Part shown: piece after piece, positions 27,067-55,530 of the stretch
Layout: each line of letters begins with the position of its first letter
Position numbering within the stretch: the first letter of the stretch is position 1
Source of the DNA: Fimbriimonadales bacterium
GTDB lineage: Bacteria > Armatimonadota > Fimbriimonadia > Fimbriimonadales > ATM1
Reading direction: 5' to 3'
Length of the DNA stretch: 64,000 bases
NCBI GenBank assembly: GCA_041744215.1
Contig: JBGTLG010000016.1
Location: 1-64,000, forward strand
Program-made: the position numbers and the translations under genes
The notes under the pieces: model-generated
What the model was told of the DNA's origin: nothing
What the model saw: the letters and a program-made list of their open reading frames with translations, nothing else
Database searches by the model: none

Positions 27067-29058
27067 ATGCCCCCGCAAAGCGAGATCGAAGCCGCCCGCG
27101 AACGGGCATTCCGCCAGGGGCATGAGGGCGCAGTTGAGTTCCGAGAAGGGTTTACGATCCGTTCGTTTCTCGGAGCGCTGTTTGTCGCGTTCGTCATGTT
27201 GCCAGGAGGGCTCTTTCTCGGACTTGTCGCAGGGCAAGGGATCGGCGACGCAGCGGAATGGGTCACGATCGTTTTGTTTGCGGAGGTGGCCCGACGCAGT
27301 TTCATGCCCCTTCGCAAGCAAGAGATTTACATTCTTTTTTACATTGCGACGAGCCTTACGACCGTAATCGCTGCCGAGAGAGGACTGGCTGGTGGGCCGT
27401 TTGGCAATCTGATTTGGAGTGCCTTCACGGTGCAATCGCCCGCGTTCCAGGGCTTTGCTGACCAAGTGCCGACGTGGGCGATACCAGAGGCCGCATCTCC
27501 GGCTCTATTCGAGCGTTCGTTTTTCAATCCGGCTTGGGCCCTGCCGATCTTGCTGCTCGTACTGACAGAAGGGCTCGTGCGGATGTCATGGATGGGCATG
27601 GGTTATGCGCTGTTCCGATTGACAAGCGACGTCGAGCGACTTCCATTCCCGATGGCGCCAGTCGCGGCAGGCGGGGCAACGGCCTTAGCCGAAGCGGGCT
27701 CAAAGTCCGAGTCGTGGCGCTGGAATGTCTTCAGCACTGGCGCGGTCGTAGGGCTTGTCTTCGGGTTCTTCTATCTGGCGATTCCAATTTTCACAGGAAC
27801 AGTTTTTGGAAACACGATTGAAATCTTTCCGATTCCATTCGCTGATTACACCAAGCAGATTGAAGCGCTCGCACCAGCGGCGATCATTGGGATCAGTTTT
27901 TCACTGGCGAACGTGTTGGCGGGGTTCGTGTTGCCATTTCATATTGTTCTCGGTGCGGCAATTGGATCCGTCGCGTGTCAAGTGTTTCTGAATCCGATAC
28001 TCTATAAGTACGGGATGTTGCCTCACTATGCGAGCGGCGGTGCTTGGCCGACAAAACTCGCTGTCGATATGGACTTTTGGCTGAGCATTGGCATTGGCAT
28101 CAACTTAGCCGTTGCGATTCTCGGCATTTGGCTGGTTGCTTCGACAGTACTGAAGGGTCGCAGAGAGCTCGCTGCTTCGAGAGTCTCATTGGCGCCGCCA
28201 CCGGGAAGGGGGGACTTCCCTGTTTGGTATGGAATCATCGCGTATACACTGGCTACATTTGGCTTGATCGCCCTTTGCCGCTGGCTAGTACCGGACTTTC
28301 CCATTGGCCTGTTGTTGTTCTTTGGACTGGTATGGAGCCCGTTCAACAGTTACATCAGCGCGCGGATGATCGGTATCACAGGAAGAGGTGTCGGCTTCCC
28401 TTATCTGAAGGAGGCTGTCGTCGTCGCTTCAGGATACAAAAAAGTTGATGTTTGGTATGCGCCCATTCCGCTACACGACCATGGCGGCACGGTGCAGAGG
28501 TTTCGTGAACTCGAACTGACTGGAACAAAGATCACAAGCCTTATCAAGGCGGAGATCGTGATGTTTCCGCTAATCATTATCGCTAGTTTCTTTTTCTGGT
28601 CATTCTTCTGGAAATCGAGCCCGATCGAAAGCGGCCAGTATCCCTATGCACAGTTTGCATGGCCGTTCTATGCAAACACGGAAGCGGTTTGGAAACAGAT
28701 TAATCTTGAGGGGGCCGAAGAGAGTTCGAAGGCTATGAATGCGCTCAAACCGAATCTGATCGCTGCAGGGACGGCCAGCGGGTTGGCGATGTATGGGGTG
28801 TTCACGTTCTTCAAACTGCCAATATTGACTTTTTATGGTTTCGCTGGTGGGATTGGCCTTTGGCCAATGAACACGATTCCACAGTTGCTGGGCGCATTTG
28901 CAGGCAAGTACTACTTCGCCCGTCGGTATGGAGAAGACAGGTGGGCAGCCTATGCCCCAGTCTTACTCGCTGGGTTCAGCTGCGGCAGCGGTCTGATAGC
29001 GATGATATCGATTGCTCTGGCTCTTGTTGCGAAGTCGGTGAGTACGCTTCCGTACTAG
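27067..29058 (+). CDS. Large polytopic membrane protein, OPT-like peptide transporter
   Basis: 663 aa, many hydrophobic segments, DVERLPFPMAPV motif resembling the OPT ExLPFP motif. Confidence 0.65.
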   Translation: MPPQSEIEAARERAFRQGHEGAVEFREGFTIRSFLGALFVAFVMLPGGLFLGLVAGQGIGDAAEWVTIVLFAEVARRSFMPLRKQEIYILFYIATSLTTVIAAERGLAGGPFGNLIWSAFTVQSPAFQGFADQVPTWAIPEAASPALFERSFFNPAWALPILLLVLTEGLVRMSWMGMGYALFRLTSDVERLPFPMAPVAAGGATALAEAGSKSESWRWNVFSTGAVVGLVFGFFYLAIPIFTGTVFGNTIEIFPIPFADYTKQIEALAPAAIIGISFSLANVLAGFVLPFHIVLGAAIGSVACQVFLNPILYKYGMLPHYASGGAWPTKLAVDMDFWLSIGIGINLAVAILGIWLVASTVLKGRRELAASRVSLAPPPGRGDFPVWYGIIAYTLATFGLIALCRWLVPDFPIGLLLFFGLVWSPFNSYISARMIGITGRGVGFPYLKEAVVVASGYKKVDVWYAPIPLHDHGGTVQRFRELELTGTKITSLIKAEIVMFPLIIIASFFFWSFFWKSSPIESGQYPYAQFAWPFYANTEAVWKQINLEGAEESSKAMNALKPNLIAAGTASGLAMYGVFTFFKLPILTFYGFAGGIGLWPMNTIPQLLGAFAGKYYFARRYGEDRWAAYAPVLLAGFSCGSGLIAMISIALALVAKSVSTLPY

Positions 29059-30214: not shown

Positions 30215-31003
30215 ATGAGCCACAGCAACCCGTTCCACCGATGGCTGACCAGCCTGCTTCGGACCGGCGCCCCCGCGTCGTACCTCCTGCTCGGGGTCGC
30301 GTTTGCATTCTTCGTAGCGCTGTGGCTCTTATCGGGGGGTCCGGCCGCCGCGCGGCTTCTTGATAGTCTCGTTTTCGAGGCGCCGGATGGCTTGTCGAAG
30401 CCGTGGACGATGCTTACCTACGTCCTTGCAAACCCTGGGCCGGGGGCTATTTTGGGGGTAGTCATCGGTTTGTTCTTCTTTGGATCCTCGCTGGAGCGGT
30501 CCTACGGAACGGCGAGGTTCCTCAAGTTCTTCTTCGGGATCACTCTCCTAACCGCGGCGATGGGAGCCCTTGGGGCGTTCGTTCTTGGGATCGGATTCCT
30601 GATCTGGTCGATGGGAATTCCCGTGGCTTGCGTCGTGGTCGCCTGGGCGACTAGAAACCCTGGCGCGTCAGTTCTGCTTTGGTTCGTTCTCCCGATCAAG
30701 GCGGTGTGGATTGGGTGGATGGCGTTTGTCTTCACTTTGGTCAGTTTCACCTACCACCAACCTGGAATGGCCGTGTTCCTTGCGGTTCCATTCGTCGTTT
30801 CGTGGGCGTATGCCGCCGGGAAGCTCTTGGTGCCCAACCTGAGGGTAGGCCGCTCCCGTGGGAAGCAGATGGAGACCGACTACGAGGGCCTCGACTGGGA
30901 GCGGCGCAGAGAAGCAGAGGCGGAGCGGCGCCGCCTGAAGGAGCTGTTCGAACGATCCTGGAAAGATGACCCAGATATCGAGGGGCCCTCAAAAGATCGT
31001 TAA
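30215..31003 (+). CDS. Rhomboid-like membrane protein, apparently without the catalytic dyad
   Basis: PWTMLTY, FFGSSLERSYG..RFL, LWFVLPIKA rhomboid-like segments; no GxSG; charged C-terminal tail. Confidence 0.7.
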   Translation: MSHSNPFHRWLTSLLRTGAPASYLLLGVAFAFFVALWLLSGGPAAARLLDSLVFEAPDGLSKPWTMLTYVLANPGPGAILGVVIGLFFFGSSLERSYGTARFLKFFFGITLLTAAMGALGAFVLGIGFLIWSMGIPVACVVVAWATRNPGASVLLWFVLPIKAVWIGWMAFVFTLVSFTYHQPGMAVFLAVPFVVSWAYAAGKLLVPNLRVGRSRGKQMETDYEGLDWERRREAEAERRRLKELFERSWKDDPDIEGPSKDR

Positions 31004-31063
31004 AAGGGGGAGAATCTTCGACGTTTTGCAGGAGTTACCGGAACAAATCAGCTTCTGCATGGG

Positions 31064-31069
31064 TACTAT
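31064..31069 (+). promoter_or_regulatory. -10 element for the riboswitch transcript
   Basis: ggTACTAT 6 nt before the first hairpin GCCGGTG..CACCGGC (31076-31096). Confidence 0.55.
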
Positions 31070-31096
31070 CTAAAAGCCGGTGGAGAAATCACCGGC

Positions 31097-31220
31097 GGCG
31101 TCTAATTTCCCTTGACCGGGAAAGCGGGGGAACCAGTCCTTTGGGGCGAATTCCGTGAAAGCGGATAGAGTAACTCTTGGCTCGAGCCCGACAGCTAACC
31201 CCGTAGACGAAGCGAGAGCC
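31097..31220 (+). ncRNA. cyclic-di-AMP (ydaO/yuaA) riboswitch aptamer
   Basis: Conserved blocks in the expected order: GCGGGGGAACCA, TTGGGGCGAAT, GAGCCCGACAGCTAACCCCGTAG; closing pair CGTCT(31099-103)/AGACG(31205-09); GGCTC/GAGCC possible pseudoknot. Confidence 0.9.
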
Positions 31221-31260
31221 TTGTAACCGAAAACTGGCAATGGCGCCAGTGAATCTAAGA

Positions 31261-31299
31261 AGGCTGTGCTCTCGAGACTCGAAGCATGGCTTTTTCTTT
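31261..31299 (+). terminator. Terminator-like hairpin, candidate expression platform of the riboswitch
   Basis: GCTGTGCT..AGCATGGC stem (with G-U pairs) followed by TTTTTCTTT; extendable to GAATC/GATTC (31251-31304). Confidence 0.55.
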
Positions 31300-31307
31300 G
31301 ATTCGAA

Positions 31308-31422
31308 GTCGGAGAAGGTTTCTCTGTTGCGTCAGGCACGGTCAACGAGAAAACACCGTCGCTGAAGGCTGACCAGGGCGTGACCGCCCGAGGTCGGACC
31401 GGCTGGCTAGACACCTCCTGAC
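31308..31422 (+). ncRNA. Unrecognised structured RNA segment
   Basis: Stems GTTTCTC/GAGAAAAC with GTTG/CAAC, GACC-GGGCG/CGCCC-GGTC, closed by GTCGGAG/CTCCTGAC. Confidence 0.45.
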
Positions 31423-31425
31423 AAC

Positions 31426-31467
31426 GGGGCGTCGCTTTCGAAAGGAAGCGACGCCCTTCTAGCTTTT
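31426..31467 (+). terminator. Strong intrinsic terminator
   Basis: GGGCGTCGCTTTC-GAAA-GGAAGCGACGCCC then TTCTAGCTTTT. Confidence 0.8.
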
Positions 31468-31514
31468 CTGAGGCACGCTCGGCGCAACGGAGCGTCTATA
31501 CTCACGAGAGCAGA

Positions 31515-32471
31515 ATGAGAATCAAGCAGTTTTTTTTAGCACTTGCCTGCCTTCCCATGGTCTCGGCATTCACACAAGATGTTGGCCGGGCAATGTTGAC
31601 GATCAACGGGGAGACGGTTACTCTTGGTGAGTACTACCGACGCATGGAGTTTCTTGAAGATGTTGGGAAGATTGTGGGCAACCAGTTTGTGGAGCGTCCG
31701 CCAGCTTTCCTTGCGGTAGAGCGGATCGTGAATGAAAGACTGATTCTTCAGCTGGCAAGACGACAGGGAGTGGCGCCAACTCCGGGCGAAATTGAAAATG
31801 AGTACCGAATGAGGCGGCAGGACAACGCCGAACAGGTCGACAACTTGCTTGCACTTGGCGTTGCAGAAGCGGACCTGAAGGCTCAGGTTGCGGTTGAGAT
31901 GGCTCAGTTCAATCTGATGACGAAAGGCGTCACCATCACCGACCAGCAGATAACCGACCATTACAACAATAACCGCTTCTTGTATTCGACGCCGGCAACG
32001 GCGACTCTTCGGGTGATCGTTGTGCGCGAAGCAGCCGATAAGTTGCGTGTCGAGGCTGCGTTGGCAACCCGGAGTTTCGGTGAGGTTGCTAAAGAGCACT
32101 CTGTCGATCTTTCGAAGTTCGATGGAGGAAGCCTCGGCGAAGTCGCCATCGACCGCTTGCCTCAAAACGTCAGAAACCTCGTCGCAATCATTGAGGCTGG
32201 GAAACACACGCCATGGATCGAGAGTCAGGGCGCCTTCTTGATGTATCACATTGACGCAAAAAGCGAATCAAAGCAACTTCCCTTGGATGACCGATTGCGA
32301 CGCCAGATTCGGCGGAAGATGATGCTTGACATGGGTCGAGCCAAGAACAACGTCAAAGCGATGATGGACGAAATGCTCAAGACGGTCAAGGTGGAGATCG
32401 CAGCACCCGGGCTTCAGAAGCTTTGGGACGCCTATATTCGCGATTATCAGCGCTCTCTTAGCGGGCAATGA
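31515..32471 (+). CDS. SurA/PrsA-type parvulin foldase
   Basis: Signal peptide, SurA-N-like helical region, FGEVAKEHSVD.SKFDGGSLG parvulin motif; own TATACT at 31497-31502. Confidence 0.85.
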   Translation: MRIKQFFLALACLPMVSAFTQDVGRAMLTINGETVTLGEYYRRMEFLEDVGKIVGNQFVERPPAFLAVERIVNERLILQLARRQGVAPTPGEIENEYRMRRQDNAEQVDNLLALGVAEADLKAQVAVEMAQFNLMTKGVTITDQQITDHYNNNRFLYSTPATATLRVIVVREAADKLRVEAALATRSFGEVAKEHSVDLSKFDGGSLGEVAIDRLPQNVRNLVAIIEAGKHTPWIESQGAFLMYHIDAKSESKQLPLDDRLRRQIRRKMMLDMGRAKNNVKAMMDEMLKTVKVEIAAPGLQKLWDAYIRDYQRSLSGQ

Positions 32472-33874
32472 TCTCGATTGTCGGATTAGGTCCTGGCGAC
32501 CGATCGCAGATACCTTTACGAAACTTGGATGCTCTCCGCTCTGCCGAGCGGGTTATCCTTCGAACCCAAATCCATCCGGCCGCGGGACACCTTCGCGCAG
32601 AGGGTATCGCGTTTGAGACATGCGATGATCTTTACGAGACGGCTGAGAACTTTGAGTCGCTCTACCTCCAGATCGCCCAGCGTGTTCTTGATGCCGGCAG
32701 CTGTGCTTATGCGGTGCCAGGGCATCCGCTGTTCGGCGAAGAGTCGGTACGCATTTTGCTCAATCGGATCGAATGTGAGGTTTTCGGTGCGCCGAGCTTT
32801 GTTGATGCTGTCCTTGATGCTATTCAAACGCCGATCGCAGCTTCACTGCAAGTCTGGAATGCCTACGATCCAGCTGCCCACTTCCCGGATCCGCGCAGCT
32901 CGCAAATCGTCTACAACCTAGATTCGAAAGATGTAGCCTCGGACGTCAAACTGTGGCTGCTAAGGTTTTTTCCGGCCGATCACGCTGTGACAGTCGTTTC
33001 CGGGTGGCTTTCCGGTGAGAACCCACGAAGACTCGGCGTCCCACTTTCGGAACTCGACCATCAAGAGTTTGATCCACTCACGAGCGCATTCATTGGATCG
33101 CTTGTTAGGGAGCGACCGTATGGGTTTTATGGTCTGGTTCATGTTGTTGACAAACTGCTGGGCCCAGATGGTTGCCCCTGGGATCGGGAGCAGACGCACG
33201 AGTCTCTCAAAAAGCATCTTCTTGAAGAGACGTATGAAGCGATCGAAGCAATCGATTCGGGTGATGCGGATCGGCTTTGTGAAGAGCTTGGCGATGTGCT
33301 TTTGCAACCGCTGATGCATTCACAGATGGATGCCATAGAAGGACTTTATGATATCGACGATGTCATTGATGGGATCACCCACAAATTGGTGCGGAGGCAC
33401 CCGCACGTATTCGGCGATATCAAGGTCAACGATGCCAAGGAAGTGCTCAACAACTGGGACATGATCAAGCAATCGGAAAAGCCCGATGGCGAGAAGTCTG
33501 TTCTCGACGGCGTACCGACCGCCCTGCCCGCTTTGCTGCGTGCTTATGAGGTTAGCAAGCGAGCAGCTCGGGTCGGGTTTGAATGGCCGGATTTTCAGTC
33601 TGTGCTGGCAAAAGTCGAAGAAGAGCGAGCTGAGTTAGAGGAGGCGATTATCGCCGGCGATCCTGAGGAGATCGAAGCTGAACTCGGCGACTTGCTGTTC
33701 GCTCTCGTAAATGTCGCTCGGTGGAAAGGCGTCGAGCCGGAGGAGGCACTACGAAAGATGGTGACTCGGTTCTCGGGGAGGTTCGCTAAGATGGAGCAAT
33801 CTGCTAACAAAGCCCTTAAGGAGCATTCTTTTGCCGAGTGGGATGCGCTCTGGGAACGCGCAAAACAAAGTTAG
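32468..33874 (+). CDS. mazG: YabN-like tetrapyrrole-methylase/MazG nucleoside triphosphate pyrophosphohydrolase
   Basis: IVGLGPG, YAVPGHP, GCPWDREQTH, EETYE, EELGD, RRHPHVFG. Confidence 0.92.
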   Translation: MISIVGLGPGDRSQIPLRNLDALRSAERVILRTQIHPAAGHLRAEGIAFETCDDLYETAENFESLYLQIAQRVLDAGSCAYAVPGHPLFGEESVRILLNRIECEVFGAPSFVDAVLDAIQTPIAASLQVWNAYDPAAHFPDPRSSQIVYNLDSKDVASDVKLWLLRFFPADHAVTVVSGWLSGENPRRLGVPLSELDHQEFDPLTSAFIGSLVRERPYGFYGLVHVVDKLLGPDGCPWDREQTHESLKKHLLEETYEAIEAIDSGDADRLCEELGDVLLQPLMHSQMDAIEGLYDIDDVIDGITHKLVRRHPHVFGDIKVNDAKEVLNNWDMIKQSEKPDGEKSVLDGVPTALPALLRAYEVSKRAARVGFEWPDFQSVLAKVEEERAELEEAIIAGDPEEIEAELGDLLFALVNVARWKGVEPEEALRKMVTRFSGRFAKMEQSANKALKEHSFAEWDALWERAKQS

Positions 33875-55437: not shown

Positions 55438-55530
55438 TGGCGGAGCGGGTGGGATTCGAACCCACGACCCGTCTTGACAACGAGTACGCGATTTCCAGTC
55501 GCGCTCCTTCGACCACTCGGACACCGCTCC
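55438..55530 (-). tRNA. tRNA-Ser(GGA)
   Basis: GGAGCGG acceptor, CGCGA-CTGGAAA-TCGCG anticodon arm, long variable arm, GGTTCGAATCC, encoded CCA. Confidence 0.97.

Follow-up and report, generated by a model that had tools for sequence, protein, structure and literature searches.

A c-di-AMP riboswitch that may control a conserved non-coding RNA in one family of the Fimbriimonadales

A c-di-AMP riboswitch aptamer followed by a conserved RNA module was identified in a Fimbriimonadales bacterium (assembly GCA_041744215.1, contig JBGTLG010000016.1). Positions 1-64,000 of the forward strand were analysed; this stretch of 64,000 nucleotides is called the window here. On the + strand, between 31060 and 31467, a -10-like box, a 5' hairpin, the aptamer, a first terminator, the module and a second terminator follow each other in a unit of ~390 nt. 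With moderate confidence, which applies to the reading as a whole, we regard this as a self-contained transcription unit without protein product, in which low c-di-AMP allows read-through of terminator 1 into a trans-acting RNA module, as in EutX/Rli55. For the RNA of 31076-31470 a fold of -172.5 kcal/mol was calculated (z = -5.3), which was equalled by none of 100 shuffles. The elements that the original prediction had read from the sequence (TACTAT, the 5' hairpin, the hairpin at 31233, the U-tailed hairpin, the GAAA-capped terminator and TATACT) were all found where it had placed them. The unit and its neighbours are composed as follows.

31060-31069, + strand: -10-like box TGGGTACTAT, with TACTAT at 31064-31069; putative promoter
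31076-31096, + strand: 5' terminal hairpin GCCGGTGGAGAAATCACCGGC, 8 bp, 5-nt loop (sequence and fold)
31089-31223, + strand: c-di-AMP (ydaO-type) riboswitch aptamer, RF00379 (Rfam, model positions 1-134 of 134)
31233-31250, + strand: small hairpin between aptamer and terminator 1 (sequence and fold)
31260-31299, + strand: terminator 1, putative regulated intrinsic terminator of hairpin and U tract (-17.9 kcal/mol, then TTTTT)
31300-31328, + strand: linker of low conservation, containing a purine-rich AAGG(C/U) block (0 invariant columns)
31329-31364, + strand: 5' block of the module, with GUCAGG (31331-31336, proposed 5' strand of P1) and the ACGGU...ACCGU hairpin (31338-31359) (22% invariant columns)
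31365-31404, + strand: variable hairpin P3 of the module, differing in length and sequence between genera (0 invariant columns)
31405-31424, + strand: 3' block of the module, with invariant ACCUCCUGAC (31413-31422) (60% invariant columns)
31425-31467, + strand: terminator 2, GC-rich hairpin of 13-14 bp (31426-31457) with a GAAA loop here and a T-rich tail (terminator scan)
31497-31502, + strand: separate -10-like box of the foldase gene, TATACT, ahead of the ATG at 31515; outside the unit
31515-32471, + strand: PpiC/SurA-type foldase gene (Pfam Rotamase_2, E 1.5e-10); neighbour outside the unit

The ydaO-type aptamer, which the original prediction had proposed for verification with Rfam, was confirmed. 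RF00379 matched the + strand over the full model with 86.5 bits (gathering score 38, E 8.7e-19). By score and coverage the aptamer is a genuine c-di-AMP riboswitch, and binding of the ligand is predicted. The orthologous aptamers reached 63.8-85.5 bits in all 18 loci holding that part, 55% of the aptamer columns in the ortholog alignment are invariant, and a DAC-domain cyclase is encoded in the genome. Known c-di-AMP riboswitches precede protein genes that serve the cell wall, osmolytes or K+ transport. This feature is absent here, as no conserved ORF lies before terminator 2 and the next gene varies. Other aptamer copies in the same family control a ~100-aa protein via Shine-Dalgarno (SD) sequestration, or a Kup-like transporter. 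RF00379 aptamers are present in all 20 family genomes. In nine of these, five of them at least 90% complete, the aptamer of the unit is the only match; hence the unit may form the core of the messenger's riboswitch output in those genomes. A long-range helix between the 5' P1 strand of the aptamer (GUCU) and AGAC in the module was predicted by RNAalifold; its pairs never vary on both sides.

Upstream of the aptamer, a box of the type GGTAnnnT precedes the 5' hairpin by 7-12 nt in 20/20 orthologs. The hairpin itself is likewise present in all 20, with 7-9 bp and -10 to -17 kcal/mol, and its stem sequences differ. Neither a -35 element nor a full sigma-70 consensus was found in a promoter scan of 30800-31700. 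The putative promoter is therefore assigned only by the -10-like box, and read-through from the upstream rhomboid-like gene is a further possible origin of the transcript.

Downstream of the aptamer, RNAalifold keeps three pairs of the small hairpin at 31233-31250 (columns 190-192 with 201-203), and at one pair both sides changed in two sequences. A terminator-1 hairpin with at least five T after it was found in 20/20 orthologs. The 5' arm of this terminator can, by prediction, pair with the 3' tail of the aptamer, CGAAGCG. This candidate antiterminator contains one covarying pair (169/223: GC 10, GU 5, AU 4). All 19 loci with the whole unit show aptamer, terminator 1 and module in this order. 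Terminator 1 and the alternative antiterminator pairing suggest an OFF switch, which would depend on the ligand.

For an ordinary long leader, the original prediction had expected 31300-31425 to be unconserved. Instead, 60% of the columns in 31405-31424 and 22% in 31329-31364 are invariant, and sequence variation within the whole region is confined to two parts, the linker (31300-31328) and the central stretch (31365-31404). The mean majority-base fraction is 0.86 in the 3' block, 0.78 in the 5' block and 0.50 in the spacer between terminator 2 and the foldase gene. The variable hairpin P3 is predicted to be more stable than its shuffles (mean z -2.3; z < -2 in 14 of 20). P1, whose proposed 3' strand is CCUGAC within the 3' block, is invariant across the orthologs; P2 varies on one side only and has lineage-specific extensions. 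No compensatory changes occur in P1 and P2, so that the inner fold has little covariation support from the 20 sequences, and GAC in the 3' block has several alternative pairing partners. The 3' block also contains CACCUCCU, the core of the 16S anti-Shine-Dalgarno sequence; the 3' end of the 16S rRNA in this genome reads GGATCACCTCCTTTA. The predicted unpaired probabilities are 0.86, 0.60, 0.57 and 0.53 for ACCU and 0.14-0.24 for CCUGAC. No Rfam family was detected for the module at E up to 10 in the window or at the gathering score in the 19 orthologous loci. The module appears to be a conserved, previously undescribed structured RNA motif specific to one Fimbriimonadales family.

The unit ends with terminator 2. 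Terminator-like sites are more frequent in 30800-31700 than in shuffles (3 vs 1.1 expected), and the hairpin 31426-31457 on the + strand is among them. Compensatory changes were found at 10 of its 13 pairs, and the observed covariation was reached by 0/500 shuffles. Its energy lies between -20 and -29 kcal/mol in the 20 orthologs. In transcripts cut before the 3' arm of terminator 2, RNAfold often pairs the AAGGC block with the 5' arm. As a conserved antiterminator this block was rejected, since the duplexes are at chance level in the 20 orthologs (own -8.45, shuffled -8.08, cross-genus -8.76 kcal/mol). A pairing of GACACCUC with GGGGCGUC of the terminator, noticed by eye, was also discarded; it is lost in genus g4 and in G002.

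The unit occurs once per genome in 20/20 genomes of one family of the Fimbriimonadales (Armatimonadota), that of the window and 19/19 others. The family spans nine genera in the ortholog set and is known only from metagenome-assembled genomes. A pattern search covered 228 genomes of the order, and 151 Armatimonadota genomes were searched with a covariance model. The strict module pattern was present once per genome in 18 of the 19 other family genomes and in that of the window; the remaining one carries a variant. Of 208 genomes of the order outside the family, two contained a match, both times without aptamer and in a sequence that is not module-like. Scores of the covariance model were 113-116 bits within the family; in 149 other Armatimonadota genomes they did not exceed 31 bits and came from terminator-like sequence only. 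A scan of metagenomes with the motif alone gave four matches: three chance matches inside coding sequence and one real copy, again with the aptamer. Thus, among the genomes of the order, the Armatimonadota sample and the metagenome scan, the module was never found without aptamer or outside the family. In RNA libraries of relatives, from one study, contigs extend beyond the position of terminator 1; such contigs cannot show transcript ends, and their uncovered parts carry no information. None of the RNA runs contained more than 9% of the sampled words. In an RNA library with 47.5 million letters, an aptamer contig of a relative reached a word depth of 212.

The gene following the unit was determined for the 19 loci with enough downstream sequence. 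It is the foldase gene in 12 loci, the foldase gene behind an inserted DinB gene in one, glutamate dehydrogenase in two, another + strand ORF in two, and a convergent NAD kinase or methyltransferase gene in two. In seven loci the immediate downstream gene is thus not the foldase. Six of the 19 loci retain the unit with the foldase elsewhere, and in two of these six a convergent gene directly follows terminator 2. As the downstream gene varies, the unit is not simply a leader of the foldase. With the foldase gene next in line and equally oriented in 12 of the 19 loci, leaky read-through could still matter. The foldase gene was predicted to have its own TATACT box, and this agrees with the comparison: a box of the type TATACT, TAAACC or TAATAG is found at the same position in the 12 foldase-adjacent loci.

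Two alternative explanations assign the unit to the neighbouring gene. In an ordinary long leader the riboswitch would control an operon of foldase and MazG, both terminators would be attenuators, and the module would be a structure for stability or processing. The order rhomboid, aptamer, foldase, MazG is kept in most genomes, and envelope-related genes are commonly controlled by c-di-AMP riboswitches. This explanation is nevertheless quite improbable: the unit stays intact in the six loci with the foldase elsewhere, the spacer behind terminator 2 is at background conservation except for the -10-like box, and terminator 2 has no conserved antiterminator. A tandem riboswitch is unlikely as well, though somewhat less so. 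Here the module would represent a second aptamer, from an undescribed class, with terminator 2 as its expression platform, and both switches together would form a two-input gate on the downstream gene, usually the foldase. Highly conserved junction strands round a variable hairpin, with a terminator directly after, look like an aptamer, and in 12 of the 19 loci the next gene is the foldase, in the same orientation. Tandem arrangements with a terminator after each aptamer, namely c-di-AMP doublets and Na+-I/c-di-AMP tandems, are described in PMC9481103. In genus g4 and in G002 the 5' arm of terminator 2 pairs with a block ahead of P1 better than most shuffles do (14-27 and 8 of 200 shuffles as good), which is mildly suggestive of an antiterminator. 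Across the 20 orthologs, however, the candidate antiterminator is at chance, and terminator 2 is strong throughout. The gene downstream varies, with a convergent orientation in two loci, the foldase has its own conserved -10-like box, and Rfam is silent on the module. A descent of the module from the first aptamer was considered owing to look-alike blocks noticed by eye (GAACCGUCGCU, GGCUAGAC). The idea of such a degenerate second c-di-AMP aptamer failed: local alignments against shuffles gave z -1.2 to 2.5 (9 of 19 genomes), and an nhmmer profile of the module found no aptamer at E up to 100.

Two further explanations concern the RNA itself. The original prediction had allowed for a tiny peptide as output, and several short ORFs of the orthologs end in ...DTS*, with GAC ACC TCC TGA in frame. 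We reject a small peptide encoded between both terminators; judged by the sequences, this alternative is close to refuted. No + strand ORF of at least 60 aa exists in 31224-31514, and the only ones of at least 25 aa have 41 aa (31240-31365) and 28 aa (31286-31372). The spacing of the conserved blocks is 0, 1 and 2 mod 3 in 9, 4 and 6 of 19 sequences, so that the frame is kept in only nine. A start codon is not shared: the candidate GTG is GAG or GCG elsewhere, the window included, and the codons ahead of GUCAGG are unconserved (TTG, TAG, TCG, TTT, TAA, GCG, TGA). Alternatively, the RNA might act by binding c-di-AMP itself, as a buffer or sponge for it or as a short riboswitch RNA acting in trans, and the module would serve stability or be a relic of the leader of a lost gene. 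The depth of 212 mentioned above exceeds, by our own arithmetic, uniform DNA cover of a 2.8-Mb genome. Furthermore, CCUCCUGACAGAGG of the module resembles by eye the anti-SD segment GCUCCAUGACAGAGG of paralogous leaders, a likeness compatible with descent from a translational platform. A relic, however, would not hold 60% invariant columns over nine genera amid a drifting linker and spacer, and the variable hairpin is structurally maintained. We therefore consider this explanation improbable. The original prediction's proposal of a non-coding output is supported, and neither of its refuting conditions told against it: RF00379 matches, the module is conserved, the unit is kept where the foldase is elsewhere, and no ORF is conserved.

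According to our preferred reading, a gated non-coding RNA, transcription would start a few bases past the -10-like box, and the c-di-AMP aptamer would then fold. With c-di-AMP bound, the 3' tail of the aptamer would be held, terminator 1 (31260-31299) would form and an RNA of ~220 nt would be released. At low c-di-AMP the tail would pair with the 5' arm of terminator 1 as antiterminator. The polymerase could then continue through the conserved ~130-nt module (31329-31424) and would end at terminator 2, which is strong and probably constitutive. The switch would have the module as its output: an RNA acting in trans and synthesised only at low c-di-AMP, in the manner of EutX/Rli55.

The invariant 3' strand GAYACCUCCUGACA, with its anti-Shine-Dalgarno octamer, is most likely what the module acts through. 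Pairing with Shine-Dalgarno-like sequences is one possibility; the other is that a protein recognising this sequence is held there. The 14-nt complement of the strand has 15 sites with up to two mismatches in the genome, one of which is the element itself; none of the 15 lies at a ribosome-binding site or before a long ORF in this genome. The paralogous leader L003 was dismissed as target, as its 11-nt SD match is absent from L086, the ortholog in a sister genome. Further copies of the 5' and 3' sub-motifs of the module were not found in the genome, and a decoy of a motif used elsewhere was rejected. A more specific idea, which we consider rather unlikely, is that the module, gated by c-di-AMP, imitates the 3' tail of 16S rRNA by means of the octamer CACCUCCU. 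If true, a drop of c-di-AMP under osmotic or K+ stress would yield an abundant RNA competing with ribosomes for Shine-Dalgarno sequences; alternatively, the RNA would titrate a factor that binds the 16S 3' end. The second messenger would then be tied directly to global translation or ribosome maturation, and in 9 of 20 genomes c-di-AMP would have no other detectable output at the riboswitch level.

Several known systems share features with the unit. With the canonical RF00379 riboswitches of the ydaO/kimA type it has in common an intrinsic terminator after the aptamer and an alternative antiterminator pairing. In contrast to these, it appears to control no protein-coding gene, and its terminator-based switch is followed by a conserved RNA. 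In the full texts searched, no c-di-AMP riboswitch was reported to gate a non-coding RNA. Small RNAs that base-pair through C-rich, anti-SD-like seeds beside a Rho-independent terminator exist, e.g. RsaE/RoxS. The unit resembles them in its invariant CACCUCCU, which a strong terminator hairpin follows at once and whose ACCU part is predicted to be accessible. It differs from them in that P1 would, by prediction, take up half of the conserved strand and that no conserved target emerged among the sites of this genome. Like the tandem riboswitches cited above, the unit consists of two structured RNA domains in series with one terminator each. Unlike them, its second domain is neither a c-di-AMP aptamer nor an Rfam family, and neither a conserved antiterminator for terminator 2 nor a conserved regulated gene is present.

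The closest parallel is found in EutX of Enterococcus faecalis and Rli55 of Listeria monocytogenes, in which, as described in PMC5821096, an AdoCbl riboswitch and an effector module form one non-coding transcript with its own promoter. According to the same source, the ligand stabilises a terminator between riboswitch and effector, so that the effector is made only without ligand; it acts in trans, and its position and orientation relative to neighbouring genes are free. The present unit differs in that its aptamer belongs to the c-di-AMP class and not to the AdoCbl class, the module has no dual hairpin of the ANTAR type, its motifs recur in no other leader of the genome, and we infer its action in trans. 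It shares with EutX/Rli55 an aptamer, a terminator 1, a conserved module, a terminator 2 and variable neighbours, and with ~390 nt it is open to in vitro testing without culturing the organism. If the proposed mechanism is true, a new structured RNA motif confined to one Fimbriimonadales family is defined, and c-di-AMP signalling gains an RNA effector. The principle of EutX/Rli55, in which a riboswitch decides on the synthesis of a regulatory RNA, would thereby be extended to a second-messenger riboswitch.

Inspection of the sequence located all elements listed in the original prediction.

Elements of the unit and box of the adjacent foldase gene in the window (all read in the sequence; terminator 2 also by terminator scan)
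31064-31069, + strand: TACTAT box
31076-31096, + strand: 5' hairpin
31233-31250, + strand: small hairpin
31260-31299, + strand: U-tailed hairpin (terminator 1)
31426-31457, + strand: GC-rich hairpin with GAAA cap and T-rich tail (terminator 2)
31497-31502, + strand: TATACT box 5' of the foldase ATG (31515)

The proposed ydaO-type aptamer was borne out by an Rfam scan, which placed RF00379 at 31089-31223 (+) with 86.5 bits (gathering score 38) and spanned the full model (positions 1-134 of 134). When 31000-31560 was scanned at a relaxed threshold (E up to 10), only three matches came in addition to RF00379, all at chance level with 11-18 bits versus gathering scores of 45-88. The absence of a clear protein gene was also confirmed, as the only + strand ORFs of at least 25 aa between aptamer and foldase had 41 and 28 aa. 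No sigma-70 consensus promoter was found by a simple scan that did detect terminator 2. Folding of 31076-31470 yielded -172.5 kcal/mol (z = -5.3). On the - strand, an ORF of 114 aa (window 31070-31414) runs across the aptamer. Orthologous loci contain similar antisense ORFs (…ALASSTGLAVGLGPRVTLSA…) because the aptamer is conserved; gene callers will probably misannotate them as a conserved hypothetical protein.

A DNA search of 40 relatives recovered the region in all 19 genomes of the same family (9 genera), and in several of them the match included the aptamer as well as the terminal hairpin region. The unpublished genome G011 is a single row in every count, and no claim depends on it alone. 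Where the unit occurs in public records, these are metagenome-assembled genomes under the label Fimbriimonadales or Armatimonadota; a single record, labelled Phycisphaerae, was near-identical to a Fimbriimonadia record over the stretch compared. The 20 loci share the order GGTAnnnT box, 5' hairpin (of differing sequence), aptamer, small hairpin and terminator 1, followed by a loose purine-rich block, GAGUCAGGCACGGUCAUCGUGAAAGAACCGUCGCU, a central hairpin varying in length and sequence, GGCUAGAYACCUCCUGACA and terminator 2. The unit of G015 is split by a contig end: L009 (G015:C205) stops just past terminator 1, and the second half is found on L028 (G015:C246), which begins inside the module, the conserved stretch between the terminators. 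The variable hairpin of G015 is unlike that of the other three genomes of genus g4. Directly 3' of terminator 2, short tandem repeats were seen in G004 and G018 (GACTGGAGACTGCAGACTG...; L010 and L011, unit's orientation) and, as (GAAGGCA)n, in G010 (L017, about 1940-1985).

Invariant columns per segment (19 sequences)
Aptamer: 55%
Linker, 31300-31328: 0%
Module 5' block, 31329-31364: 22%
Module centre, 31365-31404: 0%
Module 3' block, 31405-31424: 60%
Terminator 2: 12%

In the spacer separating terminator 2 and foldase (12 foldase-adjacent loci), the majority fraction averaged 0.50 and 2 columns were invariant. Judged by this spacer and the per-segment values, the stretch 31300-31425, whose lack of conservation the original prediction had named as a point against itself, is conserved in the two module blocks (22% and 60%).

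The window is contig C16 of genome G000 (2.68 Mb, 42 contigs). It encodes a diadenylate cyclase with a DAC domain (130 bits), which makes c-di-AMP signalling plausible. Elsewhere in the window, a 663-aa multi-pass membrane protein without Pfam match (27067-29058, + strand) and a 90-nt tRNA with long variable arm (55441-55530, - strand, 57.8 bits with Rfam) were noted. We read the latter as Ser-type class II, the anticodon loop CUGGAAA in the Rfam alignment giving GGA.

Genes neighbouring the unit
On the - strand: ECF sigma factor
Ending at 31003, + strand: membrane protein, weakly rhomboid/Der1-like, 5' of the unit
31515-32471, + strand: PpiC/SurA-type foldase, 3' of the unit
32468-33874, + strand: MazG fusion protein, 468 aa, 3' of the foldase

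In the MazG fusion, an N-terminal tetrapyrrole-methylase-like domain precedes two MazG/PRA-PH pyrophosphohydrolase domains. The foldase gene and the fusion gene overlap at stop and start, respectively, and their synteny is kept across the family. The rhomboid-like gene precedes the unit in 18 of 20 loci. Downstream sequence sufficed in 19 loci; among these, tblastn detected the foldase within about 300 nt 3' of the unit in 12 and no foldase within 1.5 kb in six; the remaining locus has an inserted DinB-family gene between unit and foldase. In the six loci without nearby foldase, the next gene is a convergent NAD kinase whose end lies 10 nt past the unit in G002 (same genus as the window), a convergent methyltransferase in G018, and a same-strand glutamate dehydrogenase (~80-170 nt past the unit) in G004 and G014. 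Two unrelated + strand ORFs follow in G010 and G013. From these varied downstream genes, the unit is no leader of any single gene.

The module itself is non-coding. Its block-to-block distance was 0 mod 3 in nine, 1 in four and 2 in six of 19 sequences, the longest small ORFs vary between genomes, and the triplet before GUCAGG is TTG, TAG, TCG, TTT, TAA, GCG or TGA, depending on the genome. Regarding structure, the hairpin of terminator 2 is well supported by covariation, with both-sided changes in 10 of 13 pairs, 96.9% of cells paired and the observed level reached in 0 of 500 shuffles. The proposed closing helix P1 (GUCAGG/CCUGAC) is compatible in all sequences with zero variation and is thus neither supported nor refuted. 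Its 5' strand is GUCAGGAGG in G003, forming 9 pairs with CCUCCUGAC, and GUCAG-A-AGG in genus g4. For the small hairpin P2 (ACGGU/ACCGU), variation was one-sided only and extensions were lineage-specific. The module centre folds better than shuffles despite sequences unrelated between genera (mean z -2.3; z < -2 in 14 of 20, with the scores of four of the 20 weakened by extra flanking sequence included by the delimiter). GGUC, CCGUC and the aptamer's GUCU are alternative partners for GAC of the 3' block, indistinguishable with these 20 sequences. Within the invariant strand, the predicted unpaired probability was 0.86/0.60/0.57/0.53 for ACCU and 0.14-0.24 for CCUGAC.

The module was examined regarding its distribution and linkage to the aptamer. 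A strict module-only pattern matched exactly once in the window's own genome and in each of 18 of the 19 others in the family; the 19th, G003, contains a variant module missed by this pattern. Among the order's 208 genomes outside the family, two matched, and both hits lack an aptamer and are unlike the module. Over 151 sampled Armatimonadota genomes, the module covariance model scored 115.7 and 112.9 bits in the two family genomes included and at most 31 bits outside the family. The weak matches often lay on both strands at one place, and neither ACCTCCTGAC nor the aptamer's CAGCTAAC was present in any of eight such loci inspected. A motif-only scan of a metagenome collection gave four matches, one real copy with aptamer and three by chance inside coding sequence.

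RF00379 had 37 matches over the 20 family genomes, and the unit's copy was present in all 20. In nine it is the sole match; completeness is at least 90% for five of these genomes and 65-88% for the others, so that the absence of further aptamers is weaker evidence in these four. Of 17 paralogous aptamers 15 were inspected, and 14 lie 5' of ORFs (96-117 aa) that belong to one family (MLTEFDVR...HPIRKARRL). The G000 loci are L001:1679-1972, L003:1653-1952 and L004:1741-2058 (contigs C26, C20 and C6), with orthologs within L067-L094. Pfam found no family for the three G000 copies. The protein is probably helical and represents an uncharacterised family within the c-di-AMP regulon. In its leaders an upstream GCUCCAUGAC is able to pair with the SD GUGGAGG, and translational control by sequestration of this SD seems to operate. 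The aptamer of L092 (G019:C330) lies 5' of an ORF starting MSGKPTDRRYLIGLAIGALGVVYGDIGTSP, a putative Kup-type K+ transporter by an N-terminal motif.

Both terminators of the unit were considered regarding regulation. In transcripts cut before the 3' arm of terminator 2, its 5' arm often pairs with the AAGGC block 5' of P1. This duplex is no more stable than expected by chance (own -8.45, shuffled block -8.08, cross-genus -8.76 kcal/mol) and the terminator 2 hairpin is strong (-20 to -29 kcal/mol); hence, terminator 2 is treated as constitutive with moderate confidence. For the full unit, RNAalifold pairs the aptamer 3' tail (CGAAGCG) with the terminator 1 5' arm; in this helix, one pair shows both-sided change in four sequences. 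From the sequence, this would be the usual OFF switch geometry: bound c-di-AMP would hold the aptamer tail, and terminator 1 could form.

Expression hints were sought in RNA runs, none of which contained above 9% of the sampled words. Four metatranscriptome runs, drawn from two studies, supplied contigs that, placed on the unit at ≥80% likeness, cover the relatives' aptamer. Two low-depth contigs span the terminator 1 position into the module 5' block (233 nt over 31102-31336; 262 nt over 31159-31369). A 325-nt contig with word depth 212 comprises the aptamer and 197 nt beyond, and its first 30 letters past the aptamer equal the sequence after the aptamer in locus L012 of G006. By our arithmetic, uniform DNA cover of a 2.8-Mb genome could not reach depth 212 from 47.5 million letters, the size of the run. 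Contigs cannot reveal transcript ends, and the 325-nt contig ends both at hairpins, which are common assembly break points. These expression data, from one study, give a weak hint of abundant read-through RNA in a relative.

Concerning a role of the module, its octamer CACCUCCU equals the anti-Shine-Dalgarno core of the G000 16S rRNA 3' end, GGATCACCTCCTTTA. No site with up to two mismatches to the 14-nt complement was detected at a ribosome-binding site in this genome, which also contains no further copies of the module motifs. One paralogous leader, matching over 11 nt at its SD, was rejected as target, since the match is not conserved in the sister genome. On balance, we favour a non-coding RNA unit that is self-contained and gated by the riboswitch, with a module acting in trans. 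The main rival, which we consider improbable, is a module acting as second riboswitch in tandem with the c-di-AMP aptamer. Tandem systems with such aptamers, c-di-AMP doublets and Na+-I/c-di-AMP, are described in PMC9481103; the module showed no significant similarity to the c-di-AMP aptamer.

In the full-text library searched (main texts of freely accessible articles), no c-di-AMP riboswitch was described as gate of a non-coding RNA, and no paper joining Armatimonadetes and riboswitch was found. The unit's aptamer is a member of RF00379, but without the usual context of this family, a controlled protein gene. In EutX/Rli55 (PMC5821096), one non-coding transcript carries both an AdoCbl riboswitch and a protein-binding site; with ligand, a short form arises that lacks this site, and the RNA works in trans whatever its orientation to neighbours. 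The unit is no member of that system, yet it would work most like EutX/Rli55, which is its closest precedent.
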